A stretch of DNA of 44,664 nucleotides from a phage. The translations under genes were made by a program, and so were the position numbers. The stretch lies in the sequence record OZ077758.1. One strand, 5' to 3'. The notes beneath the pieces were generated by a model that was not told the origin of the DNA, ran no database searches, and saw nothing but the letters and a program-made list of their open reading frames with translations. Positions 4,557 through 40,694 of the stretch are shown in pieces; positions within the stretch are counted from its first letter, which is position 1, and each line of letters opens with the position of its first letter.

Positions 4557-4878
4557 ATATGCAGCTATTGGACTGGTTATCGGTCTGGCGGTAGGATTCT
4601 GGCTAGGTGACTCCTATCGTGCTGGCGTAGTGGCGGAGGCGGCGCAAGAAGCGCAAGCCCAAGCCCAACGGCAGCAAACTAAAGTTGTCGAGCGCTCCGT
4701 GCAGGCCGAACAAGCCCGCGACGTAGAATACCGGACTATCACGAAAGAGGTTGTTAAATATGTTACGCGCCCTAACCGCCCTGATTGTAGTTTTGATGCT
4801 GAGCGCGTGCGGATCAAGCAACGCGCCGTTGATGCCGCTAACGGAGTCGGCACTGCGACCGCCGTGCAAGTTCGATAG
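4549..4878 (+). CDS. i-spanin (Rz-like)
   Basis: GTG start; N-terminal transmembrane helix (AAIGLVIGLAVGFWLG) followed by charged Q/A/E-rich periplasmic region; o-spanin ORF embedded in +1 frame. Confidence 0.6.
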   Translation: MIKYAAIGLVIGLAVGFWLGDSYRAGVVAEAAQEAQAQAQRQQTKVVERSVQAEQARDVEYRTITKEVVKYVTRPNRPDCSFDAERVRIKQRAVDAANGVGTATAVQVR

Positions 4879-4990
4879 CCCGTCCGCAGACCCCGACGAG
4901 GATTTGATGATTGACGTGAAAAATATGGAATGCGGGGCGAAGCTAAGGGCGCAGGTGCTGGAGTTGCAGCAAATAATTAAGGGGCCGTAA
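4760..4990 (+). CDS. o-spanin (Rz1-like lipoprotein)
   Basis: ATG at 4760 with RBS AAGAGG; signal peptide ending in lipobox LSAC; Pro-rich; overlaps and extends past the i-spanin gene. Confidence 0.6.
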   Translation: MLRALTALIVVLMLSACGSSNAPLMPLTESALRPPCKFDSPSADPDEDLMIDVKNMECGAKLRAQVLELQQIIKGP

Positions 4991-5003
4991 TGGCCCCCTT
5001 TTC
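4981..5003. terminator. bidirectional rho-independent terminator between convergent genes
   Basis: hairpin GGGGCCGTAATGGCCCC followed by CTTTT on + strand and T-rich tract on - strand; lies between Rz1 stop and stop of minus-strand gene at 5005. Confidence 0.6.
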
Positions 5004-5004
5004 G

Positions 5005-5769
5005 TTAGCGCGGAATACCGCAAATCTCGTTGAGAGTTTTCACATCCAGCGCCACCGCCGTGGATTTTGGCTTGTCCGGGTAAGGGATGAATTGCTCAAC
5101 TTCAGGCCATGCCTTAATCAGCTTCTTGTCAGTATTGTGCAGGTCCAGCACACCGGTAACGGTCAACTTGAACGCGTCATACTTAGCCCGCAATTCGCGG
5201 CGGGCATGATCGTTACGGTCCAGGCGCTTACAGAAGTCATGATCCGCAGGGTAGTCTATACGACCGCGTGGCTTATAGATCGGCAGCGATTTTCCGTCCT
5301 CGTCCACTTCACACACCGAAGCCAGCATAACTTCCTCGAACCCCGGTACGATATCGCCGAGATCGGGAGATAGCTTATTCATGTATTTATATTCCCAGTA
5401 TCCGCGATGTACGCGGTATTGGTGACCGTCACCGCTCAAGGACAAGGTGCGAACGTTTCCGCCTGCATTTATTTCGAAAGTGGCGTCGTAAACGCTGCCG
5501 ATGCCTTTCGGGCGGTCGGTGTTATAACTATACGTCGCCTTGTTGGTGTATACACAGACGCCGTACATCTGCGACGGGTCATCGCCGATTGCTTCAATGC
5601 GCGCGAGTAGCTCGGCGAACGTGCGAATGCCTTCTGGCATACAGTCCAGCGTAATGGCGTACGCCAGGTCGCGCGAGTCCATCATTATTGATTTTGCTTC
5701 TGTCGCGATTTCGTGGTCGCGCAGGATGTTAGCCAGAATCTGATTTTTAATGTCTTTAGTCAGTCTCAT
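5005..5769 (-). CDS. hypothetical protein, counter-oriented moron in capsid module
   Basis: 254 aa from ATG at 5769..5767 (MRLTKDIK...), RBS GAGGA; the longer track ORF to 6216 overlaps the scaffold gene and promoter and is rejected; no recognisable catalytic motif. Confidence 0.7.
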   Translation of the reverse strand: MRLTKDIKNQILANILRDHEIATEAKSIMMDSRDLAYAITLDCMPEGIRTFAELLARIEAIGDDPSQMYGVCVYTNKATYSYNTDRPKGIGSVYDATFEINAGGNVRTLSLSGDGHQYRVHRGYWEYKYMNKLSPDLGDIVPGFEEVMLASVCEVDEDGKSLPIYKPRGRIDYPADHDFCKRLDRNDHARRELRAKYDAFKLTVTGVLDLHNTDKKLIKAWPEVEQFIPYPDKPKSTAVALDVKTLNEICGIPR

Positions 5770-5798
5770 TTTTGTGTCCTCGTTGTTGGTGTGCAACC

Positions 5799-5827
5799 AA
5801 TATATGCAACCAATACGAGGATTGCAA
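5799..5827 (-). promoter_or_regulatory. sigma70-like promoter for the minus-strand moron
   Basis: minus strand reads TTGCAA - 17 bp (TCCTCGTATTGGTTGCA) - TATATT about 30 nt upstream of ATG; two direct copies of GCAACCAAT at 5793..5801 and 5806..5814. Confidence 0.45.
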
Positions 5828-10638: not shown

Positions 10639-10668
10639 TTTGGTCGCTTAAATAGCGAGTGATAATAT

Positions 10669-10692
10669 GGGGCCAGCACGGCCCCTTTTTTA
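10669..10692 (+). terminator. rho-independent terminator after major tail gene
   Basis: GGGGCCAGCACGGCCCC hairpin followed by TTTTTTA. Confidence 0.65.
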
Positions 10693-10707
10693 TTGGAGAA
10701 TACTACA

Positions 10708-11070: not shown

Positions 11071-11384
11071 TTGAGGCGGCGCGACGCTTTTATGGCCCGC
11101 CGCCACCCTCCGAAGATTTAGCCGCAAGTTTATGGGGTGCGGCCCCCGAAGATGTTTGTCCGCCTGTTGCGCTATGGCCCGACAACGCGAAGGTAGTCGC
11201 AGTCTTCACAGATTGCTCCACGCAATGGCGCACCGGTTTTGGTGGCGCATACGGCATCGACTACGGCGTGCTGGAGTGGTTATTTAAGATGCACGGTATC
11301 GAAAACGAGCAGCGCGCGTTTAAAGATATCAAGCTAATGGAACGAATCGCGCTTGATGAGATGGCGCAGCAGAACCCCGCATAA
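10708..11384 (+). CDS. tail assembly chaperone GT (-1 programmed frameshift product)
   Basis: slippery heptamer A_AAA_AAC at 11061..11067 bracketed by a -1 frame stop (TGA 11058..11060) and the 0-frame stop (TAA 11068..11070); -1 frame stays open with no start codon for 107 codons to TAA at 11382..11384. Confidence 0.6.
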
Positions 11385-11387
11385 TGA

Positions 11388-11516
11388 AGCGGGACAGGCG
11401 GGACGTCCCGTTTTGTCCCGCCCCTGCAAAACTGCATACCTATTCACTTCCACCGCATAAACTCAAAACGGGACAAGCGGGACGTCCCGTTTTGTCCCGC
11501 CCCTGAAAGGTGCATA
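11388..11516. repeat. two direct copies of a 36-bp GGGAC palindromic element
   Basis: GGGACA(G/A)GCGGGACGTCCCGTTTTGTCCCGCCCCTG at 11391..11426 and 11470..11505 (one mismatch); each contains the 12-bp perfect palindrome CGGGACGTCCCG and 8-bp inverted arms GGCGGGAC / GTCCCGCC. Confidence 0.8.
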
Positions 11517-11540
11517 ACTATTCTAATTTCGTGCATAAAG

Positions 11541-11712
11541 TAAGCGGGACAAAAAGCGGGACAGACAAGGGGCGGGACAAAACGGGACAGCACCCCGTCC
11601 CCGCCAGTGCTGCCGCGGTTTTCAGCCGATCGGGACAGCGGGACAGCACCCCAGTCTTTCAGACTAGACGGGGGTCATCGGCCCCCCTCGTCTGAGACTG
11701 AATAAGGTTTGT
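11541..11712 (+). repeat. GGGACA iteron array plus conserved double-hairpin element (copy A)
   Basis: four GGGACA repeats at spacing 12/16/10, a 34-bp variable block, two more GGGACA, then hairpins AGTCTTTCAGACT and AGACGGGGG..CCCCCCTCGTCT; near-identical to 39596..39772. Confidence 0.8.
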
Positions 11713-11768
11713 TTGAAATTCGCTGATACAATACCAATCGGCAACTGCATAAAAAAGGGGACTGCATA

Positions 11769-14411
11769 ATGGCAGATCAAGCGGCAGGCATCACGCTGAA
11801 GGCTGATGTTGCACAAATAAGAACGGCAAATACTGTGCTGGACTCCTTCGCACAGAAATCCGAGAACACAGAAAACAAGGTTAAGAAATTAAACGACACC
11901 CTCGGCAAATCCAAAAAGGTGACGAGTGACGCCGCGGGCGGAATGGAGAAGCTGGCGACTGAATCGCAGCGCGCCGCCGATGGCATGACGAAACAGGAGC
12001 GACTCGCCAACCGGTTGGGCATGTCGACCAAAAACCTGGGCTTTGCCTCGCGTAATGCCGCATTCCAGTTACAGGATATCGCGGTTACGCTTGAGATGGG
12101 GATGCCGGTGCACCGCGTCATGCTTCAGCAGCTCCCACAGCTTACTGGGGCGTTCGGCGGACTGGGTAACACGCTGCGTTATGTTGCGGGATTTCTTGGT
12201 CCGGTAGGGATCGGCCTCGCCGCCGTAACGGCAACGTTAGGCGTGGGCGTGGCAATTACGTCCCGCGCAGAGAACCAGGTCGCCGCGCTTAACAAGACGC
12301 TGGCACTTTCCGGTAACATTTCCGGCCTGACGGCAAACCAGATCCTGGTGCTATCCGAGAACGCCGAGCGCATGGGCGGGTCATTTCGCAAGACGCGTGA
12401 CACAATCCAGGCGCTGGCGGCGGCGGGTGTGAAAGCGGGTGGTGACTTCGGCGCACTGGCGAAGGTAGTGAATGACTTCGCGAAGGTGTCCAGCCAGCCG
12501 ATCGAGGATGTGGTCGCGGCGGTGGCGAAGCTATCTACCGACCCGGTAGGTGGCTTGCGAGCATTGGCGGATAAGTATCACGTCGTAAACGAAGCGCAGA
12601 TCCAGCAGGTGCAGTCACTAGTGACGGCTGGTCGCGAAACCGAAGCGGTGGCGCTGGCTAACAAAACAGCCGCAGCGTCGTTTACCACCATGACCAATGA
12701 GATCAAGTCCAACATGGGTACGCTTGAGCGGTCGATGAACGTCGTTACATCGGCAGCTAAATCTATGTGGGATGCTATCCTGGATGTTGGACGCGCGCAG
12801 TCCTCGAATGAGTCCGAGATGAAAGCGCGTGAGTCATTGCAGCGGCTGACAACGGCTTACTATGCCGAGATGAAAGCGGTAAACGCTGCCGGTGGGGTGA
12901 TGACCGAAGCGCAGAAAGCGCGTATTAACATGCTTTACAGCGAACTGGTCGCCCAGGAAAAAGTAGTGGCGTCGCTAACCCTGCGTAACCGTGCCGAGCG
13001 AGACAACGCAAGTGCCGCTGACGAAGCAGCAAAGGCGAACGAAGAGGCAAACCGCACCGCCCGCGACCGCGCCGCGTTTGAGAAGGAGTACGCAACCAAC
13101 GCGAAGCGGCGAGCCGACGAGATCGCCCGCCTCAATTTGCTGAATAAGCGCGGCGTGATTGACGAGAAAGAGCTTGCCGAGGCGGTGAAGCAAGTAAACG
13201 AGCGTTACAAAGACCCCGCCCCGAAGAAGGCCGCCGCTGTTCGAGTCGATGCCGGGCTGAAAATGCTGGAAGTCGCACGGAGCGAACTGGCCCAGCTTCG
13301 AGAATCCGGCAAGCAGATCGAAGCCAACGCGTCTACGCAGACCCGCACGCAACGCGCTCAAGCGGCCTTAAACAAGCTGATCGCCGACAATGAGCAGTTA
13401 ATCGCTGCGAGCAAAGAAAGAGCGCTAACGGCAGCAGAAAAGCAGCAATTAGTCGAGTTCGGGCGCGTGAAGGAAGTCCGCGAGCAGATCGTCGAAGAAG
13501 CCAAATTGCTGGATGCGAAAGAGCAGCAGGTTAAGGCGCACGCGCAGATCGATGCCTTCGTTAAGAACCAGAACGCCGAACTAAAAGCCACCGCCGCGGG
13601 GTATGCGCTTTCCACTCGCGAAGCGGCAAACCTGCGCGAAGAATTGCAGCTAATTGACCGCCTGAAGCGGGTTGGCGCTAACGATACCGATATTGACAAG
13701 GCGGTGTCTAAGCTGCGAGAAGTGCAGGAAGCACAGACCGGCGCTAACGCCTCGTTATGGGATGGATTCAGTCGCGGGCTTAAGGATAGCGTGGATGAAA
13801 TGGGTAACGGCTATACGCAGATGACGTCGCTCACAAAATTCACGTTCAGCGCTATGCAGGACACGATGAACGAGTTTTTCGAGACTGGCAAGCTAAACGC
13901 AAAGGATATGGTTAAATCCATCCTGAGCGAACTAATCAAGCTGGCTACCTCGCAGGCATTCAAGTCCATCGTTAGCGCTTTCGGCGGCGACGGCGGCAAA
14001 AACGGATTGTTCGGCGCTATCTTCTCGGGCCTCACTAAGAATGCGGACGGCGGAGCGTACGCAGGAGGCAATCTCGCGGCCTATTCCGGGCAGGTGGTAA
14101 GCCAGCCAACCTTTTTCAGTTATGGCGTCCAGGCGTTCGCTAAGGGCGCAGGATTGATGGGTGAGGCCGGACCCGAGGCCATCATGCCACTGAAGCGCGG
14201 GCCGGATGGCAAACTGGGCGTTGCCGCGTCTGGCGCAGGCGGTGGTATGGTCGTGACGACTAACGTTTACACGGGGACCGGTAAGACGGACACCAGTGTT
14301 AGCGGGCCAGACCCACGTACCGCGCAGGCGTTCGGCAAGCAAATCACCGAGGCGGTGAAGTCCGAGATCGTGAAAGCGACTAAACCAGGTGGTGTACTTT
14401 ACAAACGATGA
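11769..14411 (+). CDS. tail tape measure protein
   Basis: 880 aa, long alpha-helical Ala/Gln/Glu-rich middle region, Gly-rich C-terminus; follows G/GT. Confidence 0.85.
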   Translation: MADQAAGITLKADVAQIRTANTVLDSFAQKSENTENKVKKLNDTLGKSKKVTSDAAGGMEKLATESQRAADGMTKQERLANRLGMSTKNLGFASRNAAFQLQDIAVTLEMGMPVHRVMLQQLPQLTGAFGGLGNTLRYVAGFLGPVGIGLAAVTATLGVGVAITSRAENQVAALNKTLALSGNISGLTANQILVLSENAERMGGSFRKTRDTIQALAAAGVKAGGDFGALAKVVNDFAKVSSQPIEDVVAAVAKLSTDPVGGLRALADKYHVVNEAQIQQVQSLVTAGRETEAVALANKTAAASFTTMTNEIKSNMGTLERSMNVVTSAAKSMWDAILDVGRAQSSNESEMKARESLQRLTTAYYAEMKAVNAAGGVMTEAQKARINMLYSELVAQEKVVASLTLRNRAERDNASAADEAAKANEEANRTARDRAAFEKEYATNAKRRADEIARLNLLNKRGVIDEKELAEAVKQVNERYKDPAPKKAAAVRVDAGLKMLEVARSELAQLRESGKQIEANASTQTRTQRAQAALNKLIADNEQLIAASKERALTAAEKQQLVEFGRVKEVREQIVEEAKLLDAKEQQVKAHAQIDAFVKNQNAELKATAAGYALSTREAANLREELQLIDRLKRVGANDTDIDKAVSKLREVQEAQTGANASLWDGFSRGLKDSVDEMGNGYTQMTSLTKFTFSAMQDTMNEFFETGKLNAKDMVKSILSELIKLATSQAFKSIVSAFGGDGGKNGLFGAIFSGLTKNADGGAYAGGNLAAYSGQVVSQPTFFSYGVQAFAKGAGLMGEAGPEAIMPLKRGPDGKLGVAASGAGGGMVVTTNVYTGTGKTDTSVSGPDPRTAQAFGKQITEAVKSEIVKATKPGGVLYKR

Positions 14412-23841: not shown

Positions 23842-23847
23842 ATAGAA

Positions 23848-23870
23848 GGGGCCGTATGGCCCCTTTTTTA
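23848..23870. terminator. bidirectional terminator after tail fibre gene
   Basis: GGGGCCGTATGGCCCC followed by TTTTTT; same hairpin family as 4981..5003. Confidence 0.7.
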
Positions 23871-24443
23871 GTTTGAGTTTTCCCAGTCCATTTTGCGCCG
23901 CACTAGCGGGCTTTCGTAATACTCCTTCCCATCCACTTCCACTAAGGGCCAGTCATTAACAATGACGTAAGGCTCTGCGATATCCTCGATCACGCCGTGC
24001 GCACTATGTTGCCCGAAATCTACGCCCACCAGGATAACCCCGGCAACGCGACGAGTGAGATACTCGCGAGCGCAACGCGCCTCTACCAGTCCGCGACGTA
24101 TGCCACTGGTGGCCTTAACCTCGTAGGTCCAGACGGCATCGATCACATGTTCGCGGAAGTCGGGGCCGGATTTAACCTTGCGCTTGCCAACCATGATAAT
24201 ATCGCCGCGGTCGATAGTGTTAGCGCTAAACAGGCCGGTACGCATTAGCAAACCTTGCGGGATACAGCTACGCCCGCCCGCCTGCCCTTCGAGGTACATG
24301 CCCGCAAACATTTCGCCCAGCACACCGACGAGTCTGCTTTGCTTGCACGCGTCGGACTTATACCGCCACTGGTCAAACTCGATGCTTGCGATCATTGCCG
24401 CCAGGTGGAATTGTTTACCTGATATTTCATATTCGCCGTACAT
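23868..24443 (-). CDS. hypothetical protein (weak PD-(D/E)xK-like pattern)
   Basis: 191 aa, RBS GGGGGA; possible D...EVK motif (GDIIMV ... YEVKA); last gene of leftward block. Confidence 0.5.
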   Translation of the reverse strand: MYGEYEISGKQFHLAAMIASIEFDQWRYKSDACKQSRLVGVLGEMFAGMYLEGQAGGRSCIPQGLLMRTGLFSANTIDRGDIIMVGKRKVKSGPDFREHVIDAVWTYEVKATSGIRRGLVEARCAREYLTRRVAGVILVGVDFGQHSAHGVIEDIAEPYVIVNDWPLVEVDGKEYYESPLVRRKMDWENSN

Positions 24444-25047: not shown

Positions 25048-25069
25048 TGCAACCAACCTATTGGTTGCA
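25048..25069. promoter_or_regulatory. perfect palindromic operator TGCAACCAA-N4-TTGGTTGCA
   Basis: inverted repeat of the TTGGTTGCA motif, overlapping the 3' end of the HAD gene and upstream of gene 24486..24995; adjacent TTGCAAGTGAATTTTGC 17-mer also found at 5822..5838. Confidence 0.55.
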
Positions 25070-32696: not shown

Positions 32697-33476
32697 TTAA
32701 CGGCGGCGACGTTTACGTGGCGCTTCGTCTTCGTCGTCGTCCTCATCTTCGTCATCGCGTGGCTTACGACGTTTGCGAGGTTTTTCATCTTCCTCATCGT
32801 CGTCGTCATCGCGGCGCTTGGATTTCTTGGACTTGCGCGGCTTGTCATCATCATCGTCATCACGACGTTTTGACTTTTTGGACTTGCGCGGTGCTTCGTC
32901 TTCGTCGTCGTTGTCCAGGTCTTCATCGGAGCAAGAAGACCCGCCACCTCCGAAGGCTTCGCCGTCTTCACGGAATCGCAGACCCAGCAAGCCAGCACCG
33001 AGACCCTTGCCGTTGGTATTGTTCCATGCCCAAATATCAAGGGACACGTTGCAATAACAACCGGAGTAGATCTCCTGGCCTTCAATCTCGTCGCCGTCGA
33101 TGGTCAGACCTTGTTCAGTCTGCTTCTCGCCGAGTGACGTTTGAATGATTGGTTGTTTGAACGATTTGGCGTTGATATACAACATGCCTTCGAATTCTTC
33201 GGTTACTTCATCGCGTTCGTCGCCGTCGCGAACTGCACATTCCTTAGAATCCTGGGCGTAGTGGCGGTCCATCCACTTATCGGCATTCTTCTCGGATTTC
33301 AGCTTATCGGTGAGCACTGCGCGCGCTGCCGCTTCCACTTTGTCCACCTGCGGATCTTCTTTATCAAGAAGAATCACGGCACGGTATGCCGGTTTTTGTC
33401 CATCCTGTTTAGGGGTGTCACGTTCCCAAATTTTCAGGAAGCATACGCGCACATTTTTCAGGTTGACTTTAGCCAT
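32697..33476 (-). CDS. putative ssDNA-binding protein (DUF2815-like) with charged repeat tail
   Basis: 259 aa from ATG 33476 (RBS GAGGA); N-terminus MAKVNLKNVRV; C-terminal 70 aa are alternating poly-Asp/Glu and Lys/Arg blocks; position next to Cas4-like nuclease and polymerase. Confidence 0.5.
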   Translation of the reverse strand: MAKVNLKNVRVCFLKIWERDTPKQDGQKPAYRAVILLDKEDPQVDKVEAAARAVLTDKLKSEKNADKWMDRHYAQDSKECAVRDGDERDEVTEEFEGMLYINAKSFKQPIIQTSLGEKQTEQGLTIDGDEIEGQEIYSGCYCNVSLDIWAWNNTNGKGLGAGLLGLRFREDGEAFGGGGSSCSDEDLDNDDEDEAPRKSKKSKRRDDDDDDKPRKSKKSKRRDDDDDEEDEKPRKRRKPRDDEDEDDDEDEAPRKRRRR

Positions 33477-35850: not shown

Positions 35851-36363
35851 TTAATCTTCCAGTTCGAAATAGGTTTCGACGATTTCTTTTAGCTCTGTGT
35901 GGAAGTCTTCGACGTCGTCATCTTCCAGCTTGGCGATTGATTTGATCTCGAACGATTCCAGCAGGTCGTCGAATTCGTCGTTCGCATCGTCGTCATCGCC
36001 ACCGGCGATAATAGCGGCATACTGTTTGATTTCGTCGCGCATCTCCGCCAGCGGATCGGCATCTTTCTTACCTTTGCCTTTCGCCGGTGCTTTCTTAGCC
36101 TTAGCCGGTTTTTCGTCTTCGGCGTCTTCGTCGTCGTCATCTTCTACGACTTCTTTTTTGGCCTTACCTTTCGCCGGTGCTTTTTTAGTTTTCGCCGGTG
36201 CTTCGTCTTCGGCGTCGTCATCTTCTACGACTTCTTTTTTGGCCTTAGACGGCTTCTTGTCTTCCTGCTTACCAACGGCAGCGCCAACGGTTTCATAATG
36301 TTTAGCGATGGTTTCCAGTGCTACTACGCCGCGAGTGATCAGGTTTACGATTTGCTCAAACAT
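35851..36363 (-). CDS. acidic repeat protein, first gene of leftward early operon
   Basis: 170 aa from ATG 36363 (RBS GGAGA); two tandem ~23-aa repeats (KKEVVEDDD.EDE.PAK.KKAPAKGK) from a ~69-bp nucleotide repeat; poly-Asp C-terminal half. Confidence 0.6.
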   Translation of the reverse strand: MFEQIVNLITRGVVALETIAKHYETVGAAVGKQEDKKPSKAKKEVVEDDDAEDEAPAKTKKAPAKGKAKKEVVEDDDDEDAEDEKPAKAKKAPAKGKGKKDADPLAEMRDEIKQYAAIIAGGDDDDANDEFDDLLESFEIKSIAKLEDDDVEDFHTELKEIVETYFELED

Positions 36364-36766: not shown

Positions 36767-37096
36767 ATGAATGTAAACGACGCAATCGAAATGTTAACGA
36801 AGACTGTTTGCAGTGAGACAAGCCGGTCATGGGCATACACCGATGCCGTGGGGGCTGTGTTATTTGAAATCGAACGACTGCGGCTTACCGAAAAAGAATT
36901 GCGCGCCAGGCTGGAACTACTCAACGGTACAGCAGCAAGCAAGCTGCAAAAACACAATGAAGAAATGGAAGAATACAAAAAGCAGGTTATCCGTTTGCGC
37001 GCCGAGGGTAAATCATGGGCGATGATTGCCGAGTTGACCGGAATTAATCAGAGCACAGTGCGCTCCTGGGTACGCAATAATAAAACTTCTAAGTAA
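36767..37096 (+). CDS. helix-turn-helix DNA-binding protein (putative regulator)
   Basis: 109 aa; C-terminal HTH-like KSWAMIAELTGINQSTVRSWVRNN; first gene of rightward early operon. Confidence 0.6.
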   Translation: MNVNDAIEMLTKTVCSETSRSWAYTDAVGAVLFEIERLRLTEKELRARLELLNGTAASKLQKHNEEMEEYKKQVIRLRAEGKSWAMIAELTGINQSTVRSWVRNNKTSK

Positions 37097-37106
37097 GGCC
37101 ACGGCA

Positions 37107-39323
37107 ATGAGCTTGATTAAATTCGCTGTAACAAAACCCGCTAAAAAAGGCGAAAAAGCCAGGGCGGAGAACTTCCAGATGACGACCGATGAGTTTTTCG
37201 AATTTATCAAAGATGCGAAAGAAATCTCCTCGGTGCATATCAACAAGACGGAAGATAAAGCCGAGTATGCGCGCCGCAAGCGTAAGGCCGATGGCATCGT
37301 GGCGTATACCAGTGACGGATTGCGTCGTAAGACCAGTGCGGTGGACCGCTCGATCCTGTTCTTTGATATTGACCGCACCGACACCCGCACCCTGCGCCGC
37401 TGCCGTAAGGCGTTCATCGACGCGGGTCTGGAACACGTATTTCACACCACCACCGGCGACCGCCACCCGCTGAAGGGCGGCACGCGTTGCGCCCGTTTCC
37501 TGGTGCTCACTGACAAGCCTGTACCGGCTGAAGACCTGGGCCGCGTCCAGTATGCACTATTACACCAACTGGGTCTGTCAGATGTGGACTTCGACGATTG
37601 CACGAAAGACACAAACCGCCTGATGTACCTGCCACACCAGCAGTCCGTTATTAAGTGCCACTATGGCAAGCGCGCCAATGTGCGTCGTCTACTCCGTCGG
37701 GCGGACAAGCTGGGGGTGGAAAAAGAGGAAGTACGACGCGAACTGACCCAGGGCGATGACGGCGTGGCGGACGGTATTCTGGATTGGTGCTTCCAGGCAG
37801 GATTCGAACCGCTGTCGTCCGGTCGTGGCTATGAAGTACCGTGCCCGAACGAACACCTGCACAGCGGCGAAGGGTCCACCGCGATCATGGTTAAGGATGG
37901 CGAGATCCGTTTCAAGTGTATGCACACCGGCAACGAGTGTTGCTCGGAACTGAACAGACACCAGCACCTGGCGCTACGTCTTATCGGTATCCCGGACCAC
38001 CTGAACGTAGAACCGCACAACATGTCACGTAAGCAAATTGCCGCCATCCTCCCCGGACTGGACGACGAGGAAGTGGAATCGTGCTATGAACATATCGTTG
38101 ATGCGGTCGGTGACGGCGACGAGTACGGCGGATGTACGGACGCAGACCTGGACAACGAGCCGGTTGCACTGTTCAGTAAGCACGACCCGATCATCGAGGG
38201 GTTGATTAACTTCAAATCGACCTGGTATATGGCTGGCGAATCGAACATCGGTAAATCGTTCTACGTGCTGGGACAAATGGGCGCGGTTGCCGCGGGGATT
38301 CCGTTCGGTGGTGCGAAGGTAGTCCAGTCTCATTGCTTCTATTTCGACGCGGAAGGTGGCGAAGCCTCCAACCAGCGTAAGGAAGCATTGCAGATCAAAT
38401 ATGAGCACGACCTCGACAAGCTGCACATTATAGACCTGCAATCACGCGGCTGGGATATCACCAGCAAATCCGGCTTGCGTGAAGTTATCAGCTTTATCAA
38501 CCGCACCGCTAACGGCGAACCGGTTGGCCTGGTGGCGTTCGACTCACTCAACCAGACTGTTGCGCTGCGGTCCGCCGATGCTAAGCCGTTCGACGAGAAC
38601 AACGCCAGCGATATGGGTGAAGTGGTCAAGGCGCTGAAGGCCATCGCGGAAAATACAGGCGGCAGTGCGGGCGTCATCCACCACCCGGCTAAAGGTGCGA
38701 ACGGCAGCAGAACGCCACGCGGGTCCGGCGCGCTTCATGGTGCTGTTGATTCCGCGTTCTTCCTGGAGCAACCGGACGACAACCAGCCCGGACAATTGAA
38801 CCTGTACCATGAGAAGGCACGTAACGGCATCAAGCAAGCGCCGCGCGGATTCGTCCTTCTCAAGTGCAAGGTTAAGGTGGATCTCCGCAAGTCCGAGGCG
38901 TTCGAAGCCCACCAGTCCACCAGCACCGGGCCGGACTTCGGTGATGTGGTTGCCGGTTGGGACGTCAAGCCAATTGCCTCCACGCCACGCGACGAGACTC
39001 TTTACCTCGTACCGGTCGCCCTGGCACCGTTCGCTATTGAACAGGCGAAGGCCGCGGGCAAGGCCGCAGTTAAGGAAGAGAACGCCGCGGGGCCGCGCAA
39101 CGAAAAAGAGAAAGTGCTTTATGCGGCACTGGAAAAACTGATGGAAGATAACCCGGACCATACCGGATTCAGTAAATCGGCAATTGTCCGCCAGGCTGGA
39201 CTGGCAAAAGGTGGCACATCGACGAAGGCAATCGACGATATGGTAGAGCGCGGAGTGTTAGGTTTTTATACCGATCCGCACAAAAAGGTGGCACATCGAC
39301 GAAGGCAATCGACGATATGGTAG
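37107..39323 (+). CDS. bifunctional DNA primase (AEP-type) / helicase, C-terminus altered by tandem duplication
   Basis: 738 aa; N-terminal AEP-like motifs (LFFDIDRTD, TTTGDRHP), Cys/His cluster, C-terminal RecA-fold ATPase with Walker A GESNIGKS and Walker B VAFDSL; reading frame is shifted by a 77-bp duplication near the 3' end. Confidence 0.75.
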   Translation: MSLIKFAVTKPAKKGEKARAENFQMTTDEFFEFIKDAKEISSVHINKTEDKAEYARRKRKADGIVAYTSDGLRRKTSAVDRSILFFDIDRTDTRTLRRCRKAFIDAGLEHVFHTTTGDRHPLKGGTRCARFLVLTDKPVPAEDLGRVQYALLHQLGLSDVDFDDCTKDTNRLMYLPHQQSVIKCHYGKRANVRRLLRRADKLGVEKEEVRRELTQGDDGVADGILDWCFQAGFEPLSSGRGYEVPCPNEHLHSGEGSTAIMVKDGEIRFKCMHTGNECCSELNRHQHLALRLIGIPDHLNVEPHNMSRKQIAAILPGLDDEEVESCYEHIVDAVGDGDEYGGCTDADLDNEPVALFSKHDPIIEGLINFKSTWYMAGESNIGKSFYVLGQMGAVAAGIPFGGAKVVQSHCFYFDAEGGEASNQRKEALQIKYEHDLDKLHIIDLQSRGWDITSKSGLREVISFINRTANGEPVGLVAFDSLNQTVALRSADAKPFDENNASDMGEVVKALKAIAENTGGSAGVIHHPAKGANGSRTPRGSGALHGAVDSAFFLEQPDDNQPGQLNLYHEKARNGIKQAPRGFVLLKCKVKVDLRKSEAFEAHQSTSTGPDFGDVVAGWDVKPIASTPRDETLYLVPVALAPFAIEQAKAAGKAAVKEENAAGPRNEKEKVLYAALEKLMEDNPDHTGFSKSAIVRQAGLAKGGTSTKAIDDMVERGVLGFYTDPHKKVAHRRRQSTIW

Positions 39324-39359
39324 AGCGCGGAGTGTTAGGTTTTTATACCGATCCGCACA
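39206..39359. repeat. perfect 77-bp tandem duplication
   Basis: 39206..39282 and 39283..39359 are identical (AAAAGGTGGCACATCGACGAAGGCAATCGACGATATGGTAGAGCGCGGAGTGTTAGGTTTTTATACCGATCCGCACA). Confidence 0.9.
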
Positions 39360-39457
39360 CCGGGGCCATATATGGGTCGTCGAATATCGTCATCAAAACG
39401 AATATACCCATCACGCTTTCGGCGACCGATGACGACCTGAAAGATTAATTTGTGCGC

Positions 39458-39560
39458 GTATTGGTTGCCGATATGGGAATTCCCATATCGCTAAAAGATT
39501 AAATTTTGCGCGCATTGGTTGCCATTTTGGGTGTTTTTATCAGGTCGTATTGGTTGCCGT
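39458..39560. promoter_or_regulatory. three spaced ATTGGTTGCC sites plus 20-bp perfect palindrome
   Basis: ATTGGTTGCC at 39460..39469, 39514..39523 and 39549..39558; GATATGGGAATTCCCATATC palindrome at 39470..39489. Confidence 0.6.
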
Positions 39561-39595
39561 GTAGTGTGATTATTATGAATAGTTATGCAATAAAA

Positions 39596-39772
39596 CTGCA
39601 TAAAACAAACGGGACAAAAAGCGGGACAAACAAGGGGCGGGACAAAGCGGGACAGCACCCCCGTCCCGCCCCGGATGACGCGGCCTGGAGAGGAGCGGGA
39701 CAGCGGGACAGCACCCCAGTCTTTCAGACTAGACGGGGGTCAGTGGCCCCCCTCGTCTGAGACTGAATAAAA
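39596..39772 (+). repeat. GGGACA iteron array plus conserved double-hairpin element (copy B)
   Basis: same architecture as 11541..11712; flanks nearly identical, central 34-bp block diverged at about half the positions with length conserved; preceded by AT-rich segment 39565..39610. Confidence 0.8.
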
Positions 39773-39925
39773 TCCGGGGATTGCAAAATACACGGCAGCA
39801 TGATGCGAAGTGCGGTCGTAGGTGAACTAGGCAACCAATGCGAGTTGCATTATGCGAAGTGAAAAATGCAGTTTGCAGTCACAGCGGATAGCGATCAACT
39901 TTTTCATGCGCGTGATTAATATTGG

Positions 39926-39954
39926 TTGCACCCCGCCTGGCACCCTGCTATATT
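39926..39954 (+). promoter_or_regulatory. sigma70-like promoter
   Basis: TTGCAC - 17 bp - TATATT, built from two ATTGGTTGCAC copies; leader GGTTGCACACCAACATGAGGA also found at the moron promoter. Confidence 0.5.
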
Positions 39955-39982
39955 GGTTGCACACCAACATGAGGACTGAACG

Positions 39983-40288
39983 ATGAAAGCGATTATCTGG
40001 AATTACGCATTAGCCGTGGCAAAGCTGTACGAAGCGAAACACACAAACGGCAACGCAGACGAAGCGCGCGAGGTCGTCATCCTGACCCAGCAGGCAATCA
40101 TGGACGCGTTCGACGATATGTTTGCCAGCCTGGACGAACTGGAACCGCTGCGTGTGGCAATCTGCGAATATGCGATGGCATTTGCCCGTGAGCGCCTGGC
40201 GTATCGTTTCGGGATCGGCGATAAGGCAGTGACAAACGTCGCCCGGATTAAAGCCCAGCGCGAACTATTCGCGCAGCTTGCGAAATAA
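39983..40288 (+). CDS. hypothetical protein
   Basis: 101-aa ORF with RBS GAGGA. Confidence 0.55.
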   Translation: MKAIIWNYALAVAKLYEAKHTNGNADEAREVVILTQQAIMDAFDDMFASLDELEPLRVAICEYAMAFARERLAYRFGIGDKAVTNVARIKAQRELFAQLAK

Positions 40289-40297
40289 GGGGCCAAA

Positions 40298-40567
40298 ATG
40301 GGCCGTAGACGAGAAAAACAGCTTTCGTGGCATATTCCCCTGCATTGCATACGAATATGGGCTAAGAATGCGGTTGAGGGCGATTCTGTGTTCTGGTGCT
40401 ATCGAGACGACGTAAAGCCACTGACGCAGACTCGCTACTTGCACCAGTTCGCAGCACAACACGATTTCAGGGTGCGGACTTCCTTGCAACCAATGGGAAT
40501 ACGTATTACATTACGCCGGAAGCCCGCCATTGAGCGGGTAGGCAAACACTGGAGACTGAGCAGATGA
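40298..40567 (+). CDS. hypothetical protein
   Basis: 89-aa Arg-rich ORF. Confidence 0.4.
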   Translation: MGRRREKQLSWHIPLHCIRIWAKNAVEGDSVFWCYRDDVKPLTQTRYLHQFAAQHDFRVRTSLQPMGIRITLRRKPAIERVGKHWRLSR

Positions 40568-40694
40568 TGATAGGCGGATTCTCGCAGGAGTATATCTACC
40601 TGCATATGTGCGTACTTGACTACGAACAAAACGGCATCGCTACGGTGTGCGATGGCGACACGAAGACTATAGAAGAGATCGAGGAGACAGAGCA

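Follow-up and report, generated by a model that had tools for sequence, protein, structure and literature searches.

The sequence record OZ077758.1, analysed here over its whole length of 44,664 nucleotides (the window), carries at two distant places an element of repeated GGGACA boxes and hairpins, copy A at 11532-11705 (locus A) and copy B at 39597-39770 (locus B), and this element is the subject of the present study. The window belongs to a Dhillonvirus, i.e. a coliphage of the HK578/SO-1 kind: a BLAST search of the phage collection with locus A matches 159 records, almost all of them from Escherichia phages and including HK578, SO-1, JL1 and BASEL Bas16, and the gene order is the same as in SO-1 and HK578. 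The repeats as such are already on record. The entry of Sodalis phage SO-1 (NC_013600) lists the same loci as repeat 'region A' (11214-11597) and 'region B' (40178-40657), the second directly after the gp48 replicative helicase-primase, with the words 'direct, inverted and palindromic repeat sequences; sequence similarity with region B' and no established function, and HK578 and others have a 'terminator' or a 'repeat_region' annotated there, nothing more. In the literature that we searched we found no paper describing these repeats or GGGACA iterons, and no function, iteron definition or cross-genus comparison for the SO-1 regions. The two loci and the genes that frame them are laid out as follows, from left to right.

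Up to ~23.8 kb, + strand: terminase through tail genes.
11379..11544: upstream part of locus A, with GCATAA(A) boxes at 11379, 11434 (GCATAC variant), 11455, 11512 and 11533.
11389-11421 and 11468-11500: palindromic putative iteron units U1 and U2 of locus A.
11500-11544: AT tract of locus A, 60-62% AT.
11545..11589, + strand: putative iteron set 1 of locus A, four direct CGGGACA boxes starting at 11545, 11557, 11573 and 11583 (spacing 12/16/10).
11597..11602, - strand: inverted putative iteron GTCCCC of locus A.
11603..11630: A-type spacer of locus A, homologous to the spacers of Salmonella virus VSiP (a Cornellvirus) and of the metagenomic contig L063.
11631..11645, + strand: putative iteron set 2 of locus A, two direct CGGGACA boxes starting at 11631 and 11639 (spacing 8).
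11653..11700, + strand: hairpin module of locus A, with a small hairpin at 11653-11665 and a large one at 11666-11693, loop ATC.
11701..11769: downstream flank of locus A, a 68% AT tract with TGCATAA boxes at 11746 and 11763, the latter overlapping the tape-measure start codon.
23.9 to 36.5 kb, - strand: leftward DNA-metabolism block.
36767..37096, + strand: small gene opening the rightward block and first in the early rightward operon, coding for a 109-aa helix-turn-helix (HTH) protein (HTH_23 / sigma-70 region 4-like according to Pfam).
37107..39448 (canonical stop), + strand: primase-helicase gene, whose open reading frame (ORF) ends here at 39323 owing to a 77-bp duplication.
39206..39359, + strand: the perfect 77-bp tandem duplication, which frameshifts the last ~30 primase-helicase codons.
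39560..39609: AT-rich tract of locus B, 70-72% AT, with the box ATGAATAGTTATGCA and an inverted TGCATAAA.
39610..39654, + strand: putative iteron set 1 of locus B, four direct CGGGACA boxes starting at 39610, 39622, 39638 and 39648 (spacing 12/16/10).
39663..39668, - strand: inverted putative iteron GTCCCG of locus B, which can pair with box 4.
39669..39695: spacer of locus B, of an apparently derived B-type (the 'variable cassette' of an earlier description).
39696..39710, + strand: putative iteron set 2 of locus B, two direct CGGGACA boxes starting at 39696 and 39704 (spacing 8).
39718..39765, + strand: hairpin module of locus B, with the small hairpin AGTCT-TTC-AGACT at 39718-39730.
39731-39758, + strand: large G/C hairpin of locus B, with a T.G wobble and the loop AGT.

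A repeat search of the window returns copies A and B as a single 174-nt repeat family with 87% identity, and what an original prediction, made from the letters of the window, had described in them (two distant elements of common architecture, the 12/16/10 spacing, the hairpins, the AT-rich tracts adjoining both copies) is all present. The boxes are strongly concentrated, since 16 of the 26 GGGACA words of the window fall within the ~355 bp of the two elements, where our own calculation from a background of ~0.42 words per kb gives an expectation of ~0.15. Counted in forward or reverse orientation there are 15 boxes at locus A and seven at locus B, a clustering of short repeats such as one looks for in an iteron origin. 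The interval of 42 nt between boxes 4 and 5 opens in both copies with an inverted box (GTCCCC at 11597 in A, GTCCCG at 39663 in B), and in the rest of it about half of the positions differ between A and B with the length unchanged. The 34-bp stretch that had been called a variable cassette does differ at about half of its positions at constant length, but it is not a swappable unit; it is a locus-specific spacer between the two box sets, and its A-type version is homologous to the spacers of other lineages. (We also considered the spacer as an antisense or seed sequence and rejected this, its longest matches elsewhere in the window being 10-11 nt, which is chance level.) The hairpins of A and B, AGTCTTTCAGACT and AGACGGGGGTC-NNN-GGCCCCCCTCGTCT, differ only at the apex, where the loop reads ATC in copy A and AGT in copy B, and the AT content is 70-72% at 39560-39619 and 60-62% at 11500-11559, for 45% in the window.

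Locus A is larger than was first described. It extends from about 11379 to 11769 and fills the gap (about 11386-11768) that separates the end of the tail-chaperone frameshift product from the start codon of the tape-measure gene, and it holds the two additional palindromic units U1 and U2, of the form GCGGGACA-nn-CGGGAC/GTCCCG-TTTT-GTCCCGC. Every cluster of boxes has GCATAA(A) boxes ahead of it, and half of the TGCATAA words of the window (6 of 12) flank the two loci. As a lead only, the reverse complement of (G)TGCATAA, TTATGCAC(C/G), matches the DnaA box TTATNCACA at 8 of 9 positions at 11511 and 11532, the other boxes of this type matching it at 6-7 of 9 only.

The element occurs throughout the genus: it is found at position A in 152 of the 159 records (at a query cover of at least 80% and 80-94% identity) and at position B in 148 of them, so that the relatives do not lack it, nor do its stems drift at random within the genus. 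In an alignment of 33 distinct elements taken from IMG/VR and GenBank, the GCATAAA box and boxes 1-4 are almost invariant, the sole exception found being a CGGGGCA, while the stretches between the boxes vary in sequence and carry 1-nt indels. The invariance of AGTCTTTCAGACTAGACG is partly there by construction, this word having served as search pattern, and the loci derived from BLAST carry AGTCTTTCAGACTAGACG too. The inverted copy of box 4 either adjoins it directly (CGGGACGTCCCG) or lies 8-10 nt further on, and the inverted partners in U2 are 0-10 nt apart, depending on the phage. The combination of box invariance, variable gaps and use of both orientations suggests that it is the boxes, rather than a pairing pattern, that are under selection. 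Downstream of box 6 and in the large-hairpin loop several variants are seen, and the same ones stand at A in some genomes and at B in others, from which we conclude that the two copies exchange sequence; despite this exchange, the spacer remains locus-specific. The small ORFs lying over the elements (11510-11695 and 39506-39760), which are called in some annotations, were rejected as coding sequences, because the relatives have 1-nt indels inside them.

The position of copy B just 3' of the primase-helicase gene, already pointed out in the original prediction, has turned out to be the key clue: from lineage to lineage the word of the repeats is a different one, yet the place of the array stays the same. 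We compared the DNA directly 3' of each homologous primase-helicase gene in VSiP and in the metagenomic contigs L054-L063, the homologues having 69%, about 50% or about 44-47% identity to the protein of the window. An array lies directly 3' of the gene in VSiP, L054 and L056-L063, as it does in the window, where locus B begins ~150 bp past the canonical stop at 39448; the array thus keeps a conserved place next to the putative initiator gene. In four lineages the parts follow each other in one and the same order. One or two (A/G)TGAATAGTTATGC boxes, set in AT-rich DNA, come first; then there are 3-4 direct repeats and a single inverted one, followed by a spacer of 26-34 bp and another 2-3 direct repeats; a hairpin with a stem of 5 bp and a longer G-rich/C-rich hairpin close the series. 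The AT-rich box of this shared layout is GAATAGTTATGCA; the box in the AT tract of locus B is also present in VSiP, L059, L062 and L063, and an inverted repeat stands at the equivalent place in VSiP (TCTCCCCC), L059 (TTATCCC) and L063 (TTGTCCG). The repeat word itself is specific to the lineage (identities are those of the primase-helicase):

CGGGACA: Dhillonvirus (same genus) and L054 (69% identity).
CGGACAA: L063 (45% identity).
GGGGGAGA: VSiP and L061 (44% identity).
AGGGATAA: L059 and L062 (44-46% identity).
ACTCGCAA/TCGCAA: L056 and L060, at the equivalent place.
TTCCGCACA: L057, at the equivalent place.
GGGAT-containing words: L055 and L058.

In the complete genome of VSiP the word clusters at one place only, beside the primase-helicase gene; there is no second copy before the tail genes and no gap ahead of the tape-measure gene. 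Because VSiP has the primase-helicase-side copy only, we take locus B to be ancestral, and locus A looks like a duplicate specific to Dhillonvirus. As for the spacers, the A-type (GCTGCCGCGGTTTTCAGCCGAT) resembles those of VSiP and L063 and appears to be the older one, the B-type being derived; in L059 and L062 the spacer is AT-rich.

One further observation concerns the box upstream of the repeats. A box (A/G)TGAATAGTTATGCA is common to the AT tracts of Dhillonvirus, Cornellvirus and two metagenomic lineages (window 39575-39603; L050 22330-22370; L059 3808-3845), and it is similar to TGTGAATAGT boxes found on either side of a strong promoter beside a cro-like gene in the Kagunavirus fEg-Eco19; L052 3600-3680 and 4030-4100 belong to the same comparison. 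Its TTATGCA(C/A) portion is in turn similar to a DnaA box, with 7-8 of the 9 positions of TTATNCACA matched.

The hairpin module, folded as single-stranded DNA, gives in every lineage either one long hairpin of composite build or a row of two to three hairpins next to each other (z -1.9 to -3.9), and at locus B the 3' arm GAGACTG is able to close such a long composite hairpin. From the conserved stems and changed loops of the two copies, the original prediction had argued for selection on structure. Within the genus this argument is uninformative: in an RNAalifold analysis of 17 distinct Dhillonvirus sequences the stems are invariant, with no compensatory change in any of 18 pairs and a covariation term of ~0, and invariant stems can neither support nor refute a structure, so that the covariation check which had been proposed says nothing either way. 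It is between lineages that hairpins of the same shape and different sequence are seen. For the small hairpin, Dhillonvirus and L063 have the stem AGTCT/AGACT, VSiP has CTCCT/AGGAG and L059 has TCCTC/GAGGA, with all five pairs changed on both sides and the pairing kept; similarly, the outer stems of L055 and L058 (TTGGGATA/TTATCCCAA and GAGGGA/TCCCTC, respectively) differ in a compensatory manner around a common GGGC-TTAC-GCCC tip. This comparison, made by eye on a few lineages rather than as a statistical test, indicates that the hairpin fold is under selection.

The hairpins do not have the form of an intrinsic terminator, since they are followed by GAGACTGAATAA and by no U-tract, and a terminator scan reports none on the + strand within the elements, whereas it reports canonical ones elsewhere, e.g. 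at 10669-10685. One canonical terminator, AAGGGGCC-loop-GGCCCCTTTT, is present in the window in three copies (4979-5006, 10667-10694 and 23846-23873), of which the first comes after the gene that ends at 4878, the second after the major tail gene and the third after the gene of the tail fibre; where this phage needs terminators, it thus employs ordinary ones. An Rfam scan of the whole window finds no family. A hairpin module identical to a Dhillonvirus one also turned up at 3796-3813 of L049 (IMGVR_UViG_3300048438_000153), a 275-kb IMG/VR contig that may be a chimeric bin or a concatenated assembly.

Which protein would read the boxes? The primase-helicase combines a probable primase fold of the archaeo-eukaryotic primase (AEP) type, a zinc ribbon with four Cys/His ligands and a RecA-type helicase that is closest to RepA of RSF1010, i.e. 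a hexameric helicase of the RepA type known from IncQ plasmids. Pfam detects AAA_25 alone in this protein, and a PDB sequence search with it returns a marginal match to RepA only (E = 0.46). For its last ~90 residues three helices and a two-stranded wing are predicted, and in the AlphaFold2 (AF2) model residues 666-737 form three helices and two strands with a predicted local distance difference test score (pLDDT) of about 70-88; no Pfam or PDB sequence match covers this predicted C-terminal winged helix. Homology in this C-terminal part extends across the lineages (phmmer 3e-17 to VSiP), and the residues at the start of the third helix (STKA/NTTA, RRRS, RYKI, RRPA, YKKV/YGKT, YSDA) differ along with the repeat word. 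The other candidate is the 109-aa HTH protein, which among the other lineages has a homologue only in L054, that is, in users of CGGGACA; lineages with other words have an unrelated HTH_3/HTH_31 protein at its position, and these upstream HTH proteins are not homologous even between lineages with related GGGAnA words. The restriction to L054 counts, if weakly, against the HTH protein as the common reader. Since related words (GGGA-C/G/T-A) call for a homologous reader, the C-terminus of the primase-helicase is the more economical choice, and we think that the reader is most likely this predicted winged helix, with the HTH protein as the alternative.

Apart from Dhillonviruses, two scans of IMG/VR for pairs of boxes recovered some 20 contigs that are unrelated to them and carry dense arrays of GGGACA/TGTCCC. 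According to Pfam on the neighbouring ORFs, the array lies directly 3' of an AAA_25 (RepA-like) helicase gene in L006, L067, L071 and L074, of a VapE-like primase-helicase gene in L010 and of a PrimPol-DUF3987 gene in L015. In three further contigs it is within an ORF (L064 222-366, L073 12925-13069, L077 2855-2967), where it encodes linkers of the ...GTASGTASGT... type, and the ORF of L077 adjoins a DnaB-like helicase gene; these cases recall lambda, whose origin is inside the O gene. The arrays of the unrelated contigs stand either way round relative to the neighbouring gene, and tblastn finds no gene common to the window and the first set of these contigs.

These observations lead us to propose, as the rather probable interpretation of the sequence data, that the element is a replication origin made up of iterons plus hairpins, akin to the iteron origins of SaPI, P4 and IncQ replicons and standing beside the gene of its primase-helicase. 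An origin had been only one of three candidate roles in the original prediction, next to regulator binding sites and a structured RNA, among which it made no choice; it is now the best supported of the three. Locus B would be the ancestral origin, immediately 3' of the gene for the multifunctional primase-helicase, and locus A a second origin, or a cis-acting replication site comparable to crr, served by the same binding protein. On double-stranded DNA, the CGGGACA boxes would act as iterons bound by a phage-encoded protein, presumably the reader discussed above, and, by analogy, the spacer of constant length and free sequence would fix the geometry between the two bound iteron sets, the adjacent AT-rich tract would melt and the RepA-like helicase would load itself. 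Once single-stranded, the inverted box pairs and the hairpin module might fold into a start or loading signal for the AEP primase, as ssiA and ssiB serve RepB' in IncQ plasmids; this is the weakest step of the scheme.

Among the closest parallels are the origins of Staphylococcus aureus pathogenicity islands (SaPI). There, 6-12 iterons of five or six nucleotides adjoin the 3' end of rep and are split into two sets, one on each side of a central region; a winged helix at the C-terminus of Rep reads them, and in SaPI5 the primase is fused to Rep (PMC9371898). With these and other phage-inducible chromosomal islands (PICI; PriRep5 of SaPI5 is the case in point) the element shares short iterons of 5-8 bp, 6-12 in number, just downstream of the gene of a helicase that would load itself, has a winged helix at its C-terminus (both points being predictions here) and is sometimes joined to a primase, as well as two iteron sets around a central region, some of the iterons being inverted, and a word that varies among related elements. 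The differences are that SaPI Rep is an AAA+ protein of superfamily 3, whereas the helicase here is RecA-type and RSF1010 RepA-like; that the central region is AT-rich in SaPI and GC-rich here; and that neither a hairpin module nor a second distant copy has been described for SaPI origins. We found no sequence homology to SaPI/PICI origins. With oriV of RSF1010, which combines iterons, an AT-rich tract and hairpin-forming priming signals, the element has in common the repeats, the adjacent AT-rich tract and hairpins of putative priming function; at the IncQ oriV, iteron binding leads to unwinding by RepA, which exposes the ssiA/ssiB hairpins at which the AEP-like RepB' starts primers (PMC8567376). 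However, IncQ plasmids divide these tasks among three separate proteins (RepA, RepB' and RepC), for one polypeptide here, and the 40-nt sites ssiA and ssiB lie apart from each other, one on either strand, each of them a hairpin with a defined recognition hexamer on its 5' side and a start site 3' of it, where each of our elements has a single composite palindrome; a similarity of the hairpin module to either ssi site was not established. The iterons of IncQ plasmids measure about 20 bp and number 3.5, whereas the words here have 6-8 bp, so that nothing like the ~20-bp iterons bound by RepC is seen, no search for RepC having been made.

In two other systems one protein goes together with two distant loci. 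In the satellite phage P4 the multifunctional alpha primase-helicase acts with the same short repeats at two distant places, ori and crr (the latter required in cis), one of them beside its gene, although alpha has a different primase, a superfamily-3 helicase and another iteron word. The Bacillus phage SPP1 has two distant origin-like regions, oriL and oriR, with sites for one initiator (G38P) and one of them in the late region; it differs in having a separate initiator, a loader and a DnaB-type helicase, and the sequences are unrelated. The oriL of SPP1 is mentioned in PMC5737612. In HK578, mutants escaping the P2 OLD defence map to gp46, the helicase-primase, and to the gp45-46 promoter, and their authors read them as replication-initiation mutations (bioRxiv 10.64898/2026.07.10.737580).

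Several observations weigh against this interpretation, and the proposal should be read with them in mind. The searched literature holds no experiment mapping any Dhillonvirus origin, and the GC skew of the window flips only with gene orientation (at ~24 and 36 kb), giving no origin signal. By our count the spacer between the iteron sets has about 61-73% GC, for an AT-rich centre in SaPI, and around the iterons only the upstream flank is AT-rich. Both copies are co-oriented with transcription, and in Dhillonvirus as well as in L063 the large hairpin retains, on the + strand, a T.G wobble. These two points would suit an RNA or a strand-specific role, the wobble being a hint that one strand in particular matters, be it as single-stranded DNA or as RNA. 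No array is present at the equivalent position in Kagunavirus (35% identity) or Jerseyvirus (27%); what stands there is a terminator, together with a cro-like gene in divergent orientation and a promoter. As regards the reader, the repeat word does change in parallel with the helix-3 residues of the putative initiator, but this link is confounded by phylogeny, and the unrelated AAA_25 proteins found beside GGGACA arrays have quite different C-termini. Moreover, the contigs with arrays were recovered through the word itself, which makes their association with replication genes an ascertained sample; given this and the unlike C-termini, what their sequences show is therefore only that GGGACA arrays are typically origin-type features, not that there is one family of readers.

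A last difficulty comes from the window itself. Owing to the 77-bp duplication, its primase-helicase ORF has 738 aa and ends in KKVAHRRRQSTIW* at 39323, with the frameshift after ...TDPH, and when one copy of the duplication is removed, the canonical protein of 754 aa with its stop at 39448 is restored. The duplication was seen in no relative and may equally be a real variant or an assembly artefact. It removes the predicted wing of the proposed reader domain, and this would speak against the scheme if the domain is essential and the duplication real; if the duplication is real and the phage viable, the extreme C-terminus must be dispensable, which weakens the assignment of the reader and leaves the origin interpretation as such untouched.

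Two alternatives would give the boxes or the hairpins a role in gene expression. The boxes could be operator or activator sites for a phage transcription factor, for example the 109-aa HTH_23 / sigma-70 region 4-like protein, which at locus B, the boundary of early and late genes, would switch on or boost transcription to the right and would do so again at locus A, ahead of the genes for the tape measure and the distal tail, with the hairpins acting on the transcript. Both loci indeed lie between gene blocks and upstream of rightward genes, as the original prediction had noted, but this placement is not specific, and no promoter-like site coincides with the cores. The HTH protein is encoded in the early operon, a lineage-specific regulator would likewise result in a lineage-specific word, and the GAATAGTTATGCA box resembles the TGTGAATAGT promoter-flanking boxes of Kagunavirus, which we read as operators. 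Yet no sigma-70-like promoter is found in or next to either core, the number of sites not exceeding that of shuffled sequences; the lone site of the promoter scan in the region of locus A, 11356-11385, falls in the 3' end of the upstream gene, and at locus B a promoter-like TTGCAC-N17-TATATT, noticed by inspection, is ~150 bp further downstream (~39924-39952). Furthermore, the HTH protein is replaced by unrelated HTH_3 proteins where the layout and the GGGAnA words persist, VSiP is without a second copy before its tail genes, and elsewhere GGGACA arrays track helicase and primase genes, all of which makes the regulatory explanation unlikely in our opinion. We find it less likely still that the functional unit is an RNA, a structured part of early and late mRNAs serving as processing site, 3' stabiliser or cis antitermination signal of the put/nut type in which the GGGACA words would be contacts with proteins or pairing partners. 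Such a role would agree with the location of both copies on the transcribed strand, the strong predicted folding (z = -7.8 at locus A, folded as RNA, and -2.3 at locus B), the hairpin shape kept between lineages of different sequence and the wobble kept on the + strand. On the other hand, Rfam gives no match, no U-tract follows the hairpins, compensatory changes are absent within the genus, and the four direct boxes of locus B have no pairing partner, nor has the spacer a complementary target in the window. The spacer, constant in length but not in sequence, and the boxes, which occur in both orientations and with variable gaps, agree better with a geometry on DNA than with an RNA fold, and in unrelated contigs the arrays stand in either orientation to the neighbouring gene. 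For an antitermination RNA like HK022 put or lambda nut, neither a promoter-like site upstream nor covariation within the genus was found.

It could also be argued that recombination has spread the element as a repeat, selfish or neutral, and that the second copy or even both of them are only a recombination hotspot or a repeat that breaks assemblies. The variants of the box-5/6 flank and of the large-hairpin loop, which occur at A or at B and testify to exchange, would be expected in this case. Likewise, several deposited Dhillonvirus genomes begin or end inside locus A (H59, H60) or locus B (H97, H98), most likely because the 170-bp duplicate breaks short-read assemblies, these ends being probably not true termini. 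A spreading repeat is nevertheless hard to reconcile with just two copies at fixed positions in about 150 genomes, with boxes that are nearly invariant while flanking positions drift, and with a spacer that stays locus-specific, and inspection of the flanks reveals no terminal inverted repeats or target duplications; we consider this explanation very improbable.

Two other repeat families of the window may be mentioned here. A motif TATTGGTTGC(A/C), in direct and inverted orientation, occupies intergenic positions at 5784-5826, 25048-25069, 39457-39560 and 39920-39960, where its site at 39924-39952 overlaps the sigma-70-like TTGCAC-N17-TATATT just ahead of the gene at 39983; related words (TGTTGGCTG, TTGGCAGC, GCGGCCAAC) occur at equivalent places in VSiP, L055, L058 and L060, and this is probably a promoter or operator family. 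The repeats of GTCTTCGTCGTCGTC type at 32713-32928 and 35905-36256, as read on the + strand, lie inside leftward ORFs and correspond to acidic D/E-rich repeats in two early proteins.

Coming back to the origin that we favour, the data can be combined into a broader picture, which is possible but which we offer tentatively. Dhillonvirus and Cornellvirus-like phages would use a single-polypeptide version of the IncQ RepA/RepB'/RepC system, in which an AEP primase, a RepA-like helicase and a winged-helix reader are joined and load themselves at iterons of 6-8 bp accompanied by a hairpin priming signal. The GGGA-N-A word would be re-tuned by single bases, giving groups of replication incompatibility among co-infecting phages, the second origin in the tail operon would be homogenised by exchange, and the palindromic iterons and hairpins might be the structures in single-stranded DNA to which hairpin-sensing defences such as OLD or Lamassu respond. 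If this is true, Dhillonvirus would be a lytic siphophage with two origins. We regard the finding as one of moderate interest, for its clean series of switched words, its IncQ-like protein in one polypeptide and its second copy inside a tail operon. Dhillonviruses are common Escherichia coli phages in the BASEL and in therapeutic collections, and the elements, if they are origins, would become targets for engineering (minimal replicons, conditional replication), with orthogonal primase-helicase/iteron pairs available from the CGGGACA, GGGGGAGA and AGGGATAA lineages. They would also form a series, provided by nature, in which the change of an initiator from one DNA word to another can be studied, and would be a concrete candidate for the replication-associated hairpin DNA that has been proposed to trigger defences such as P2 OLD.

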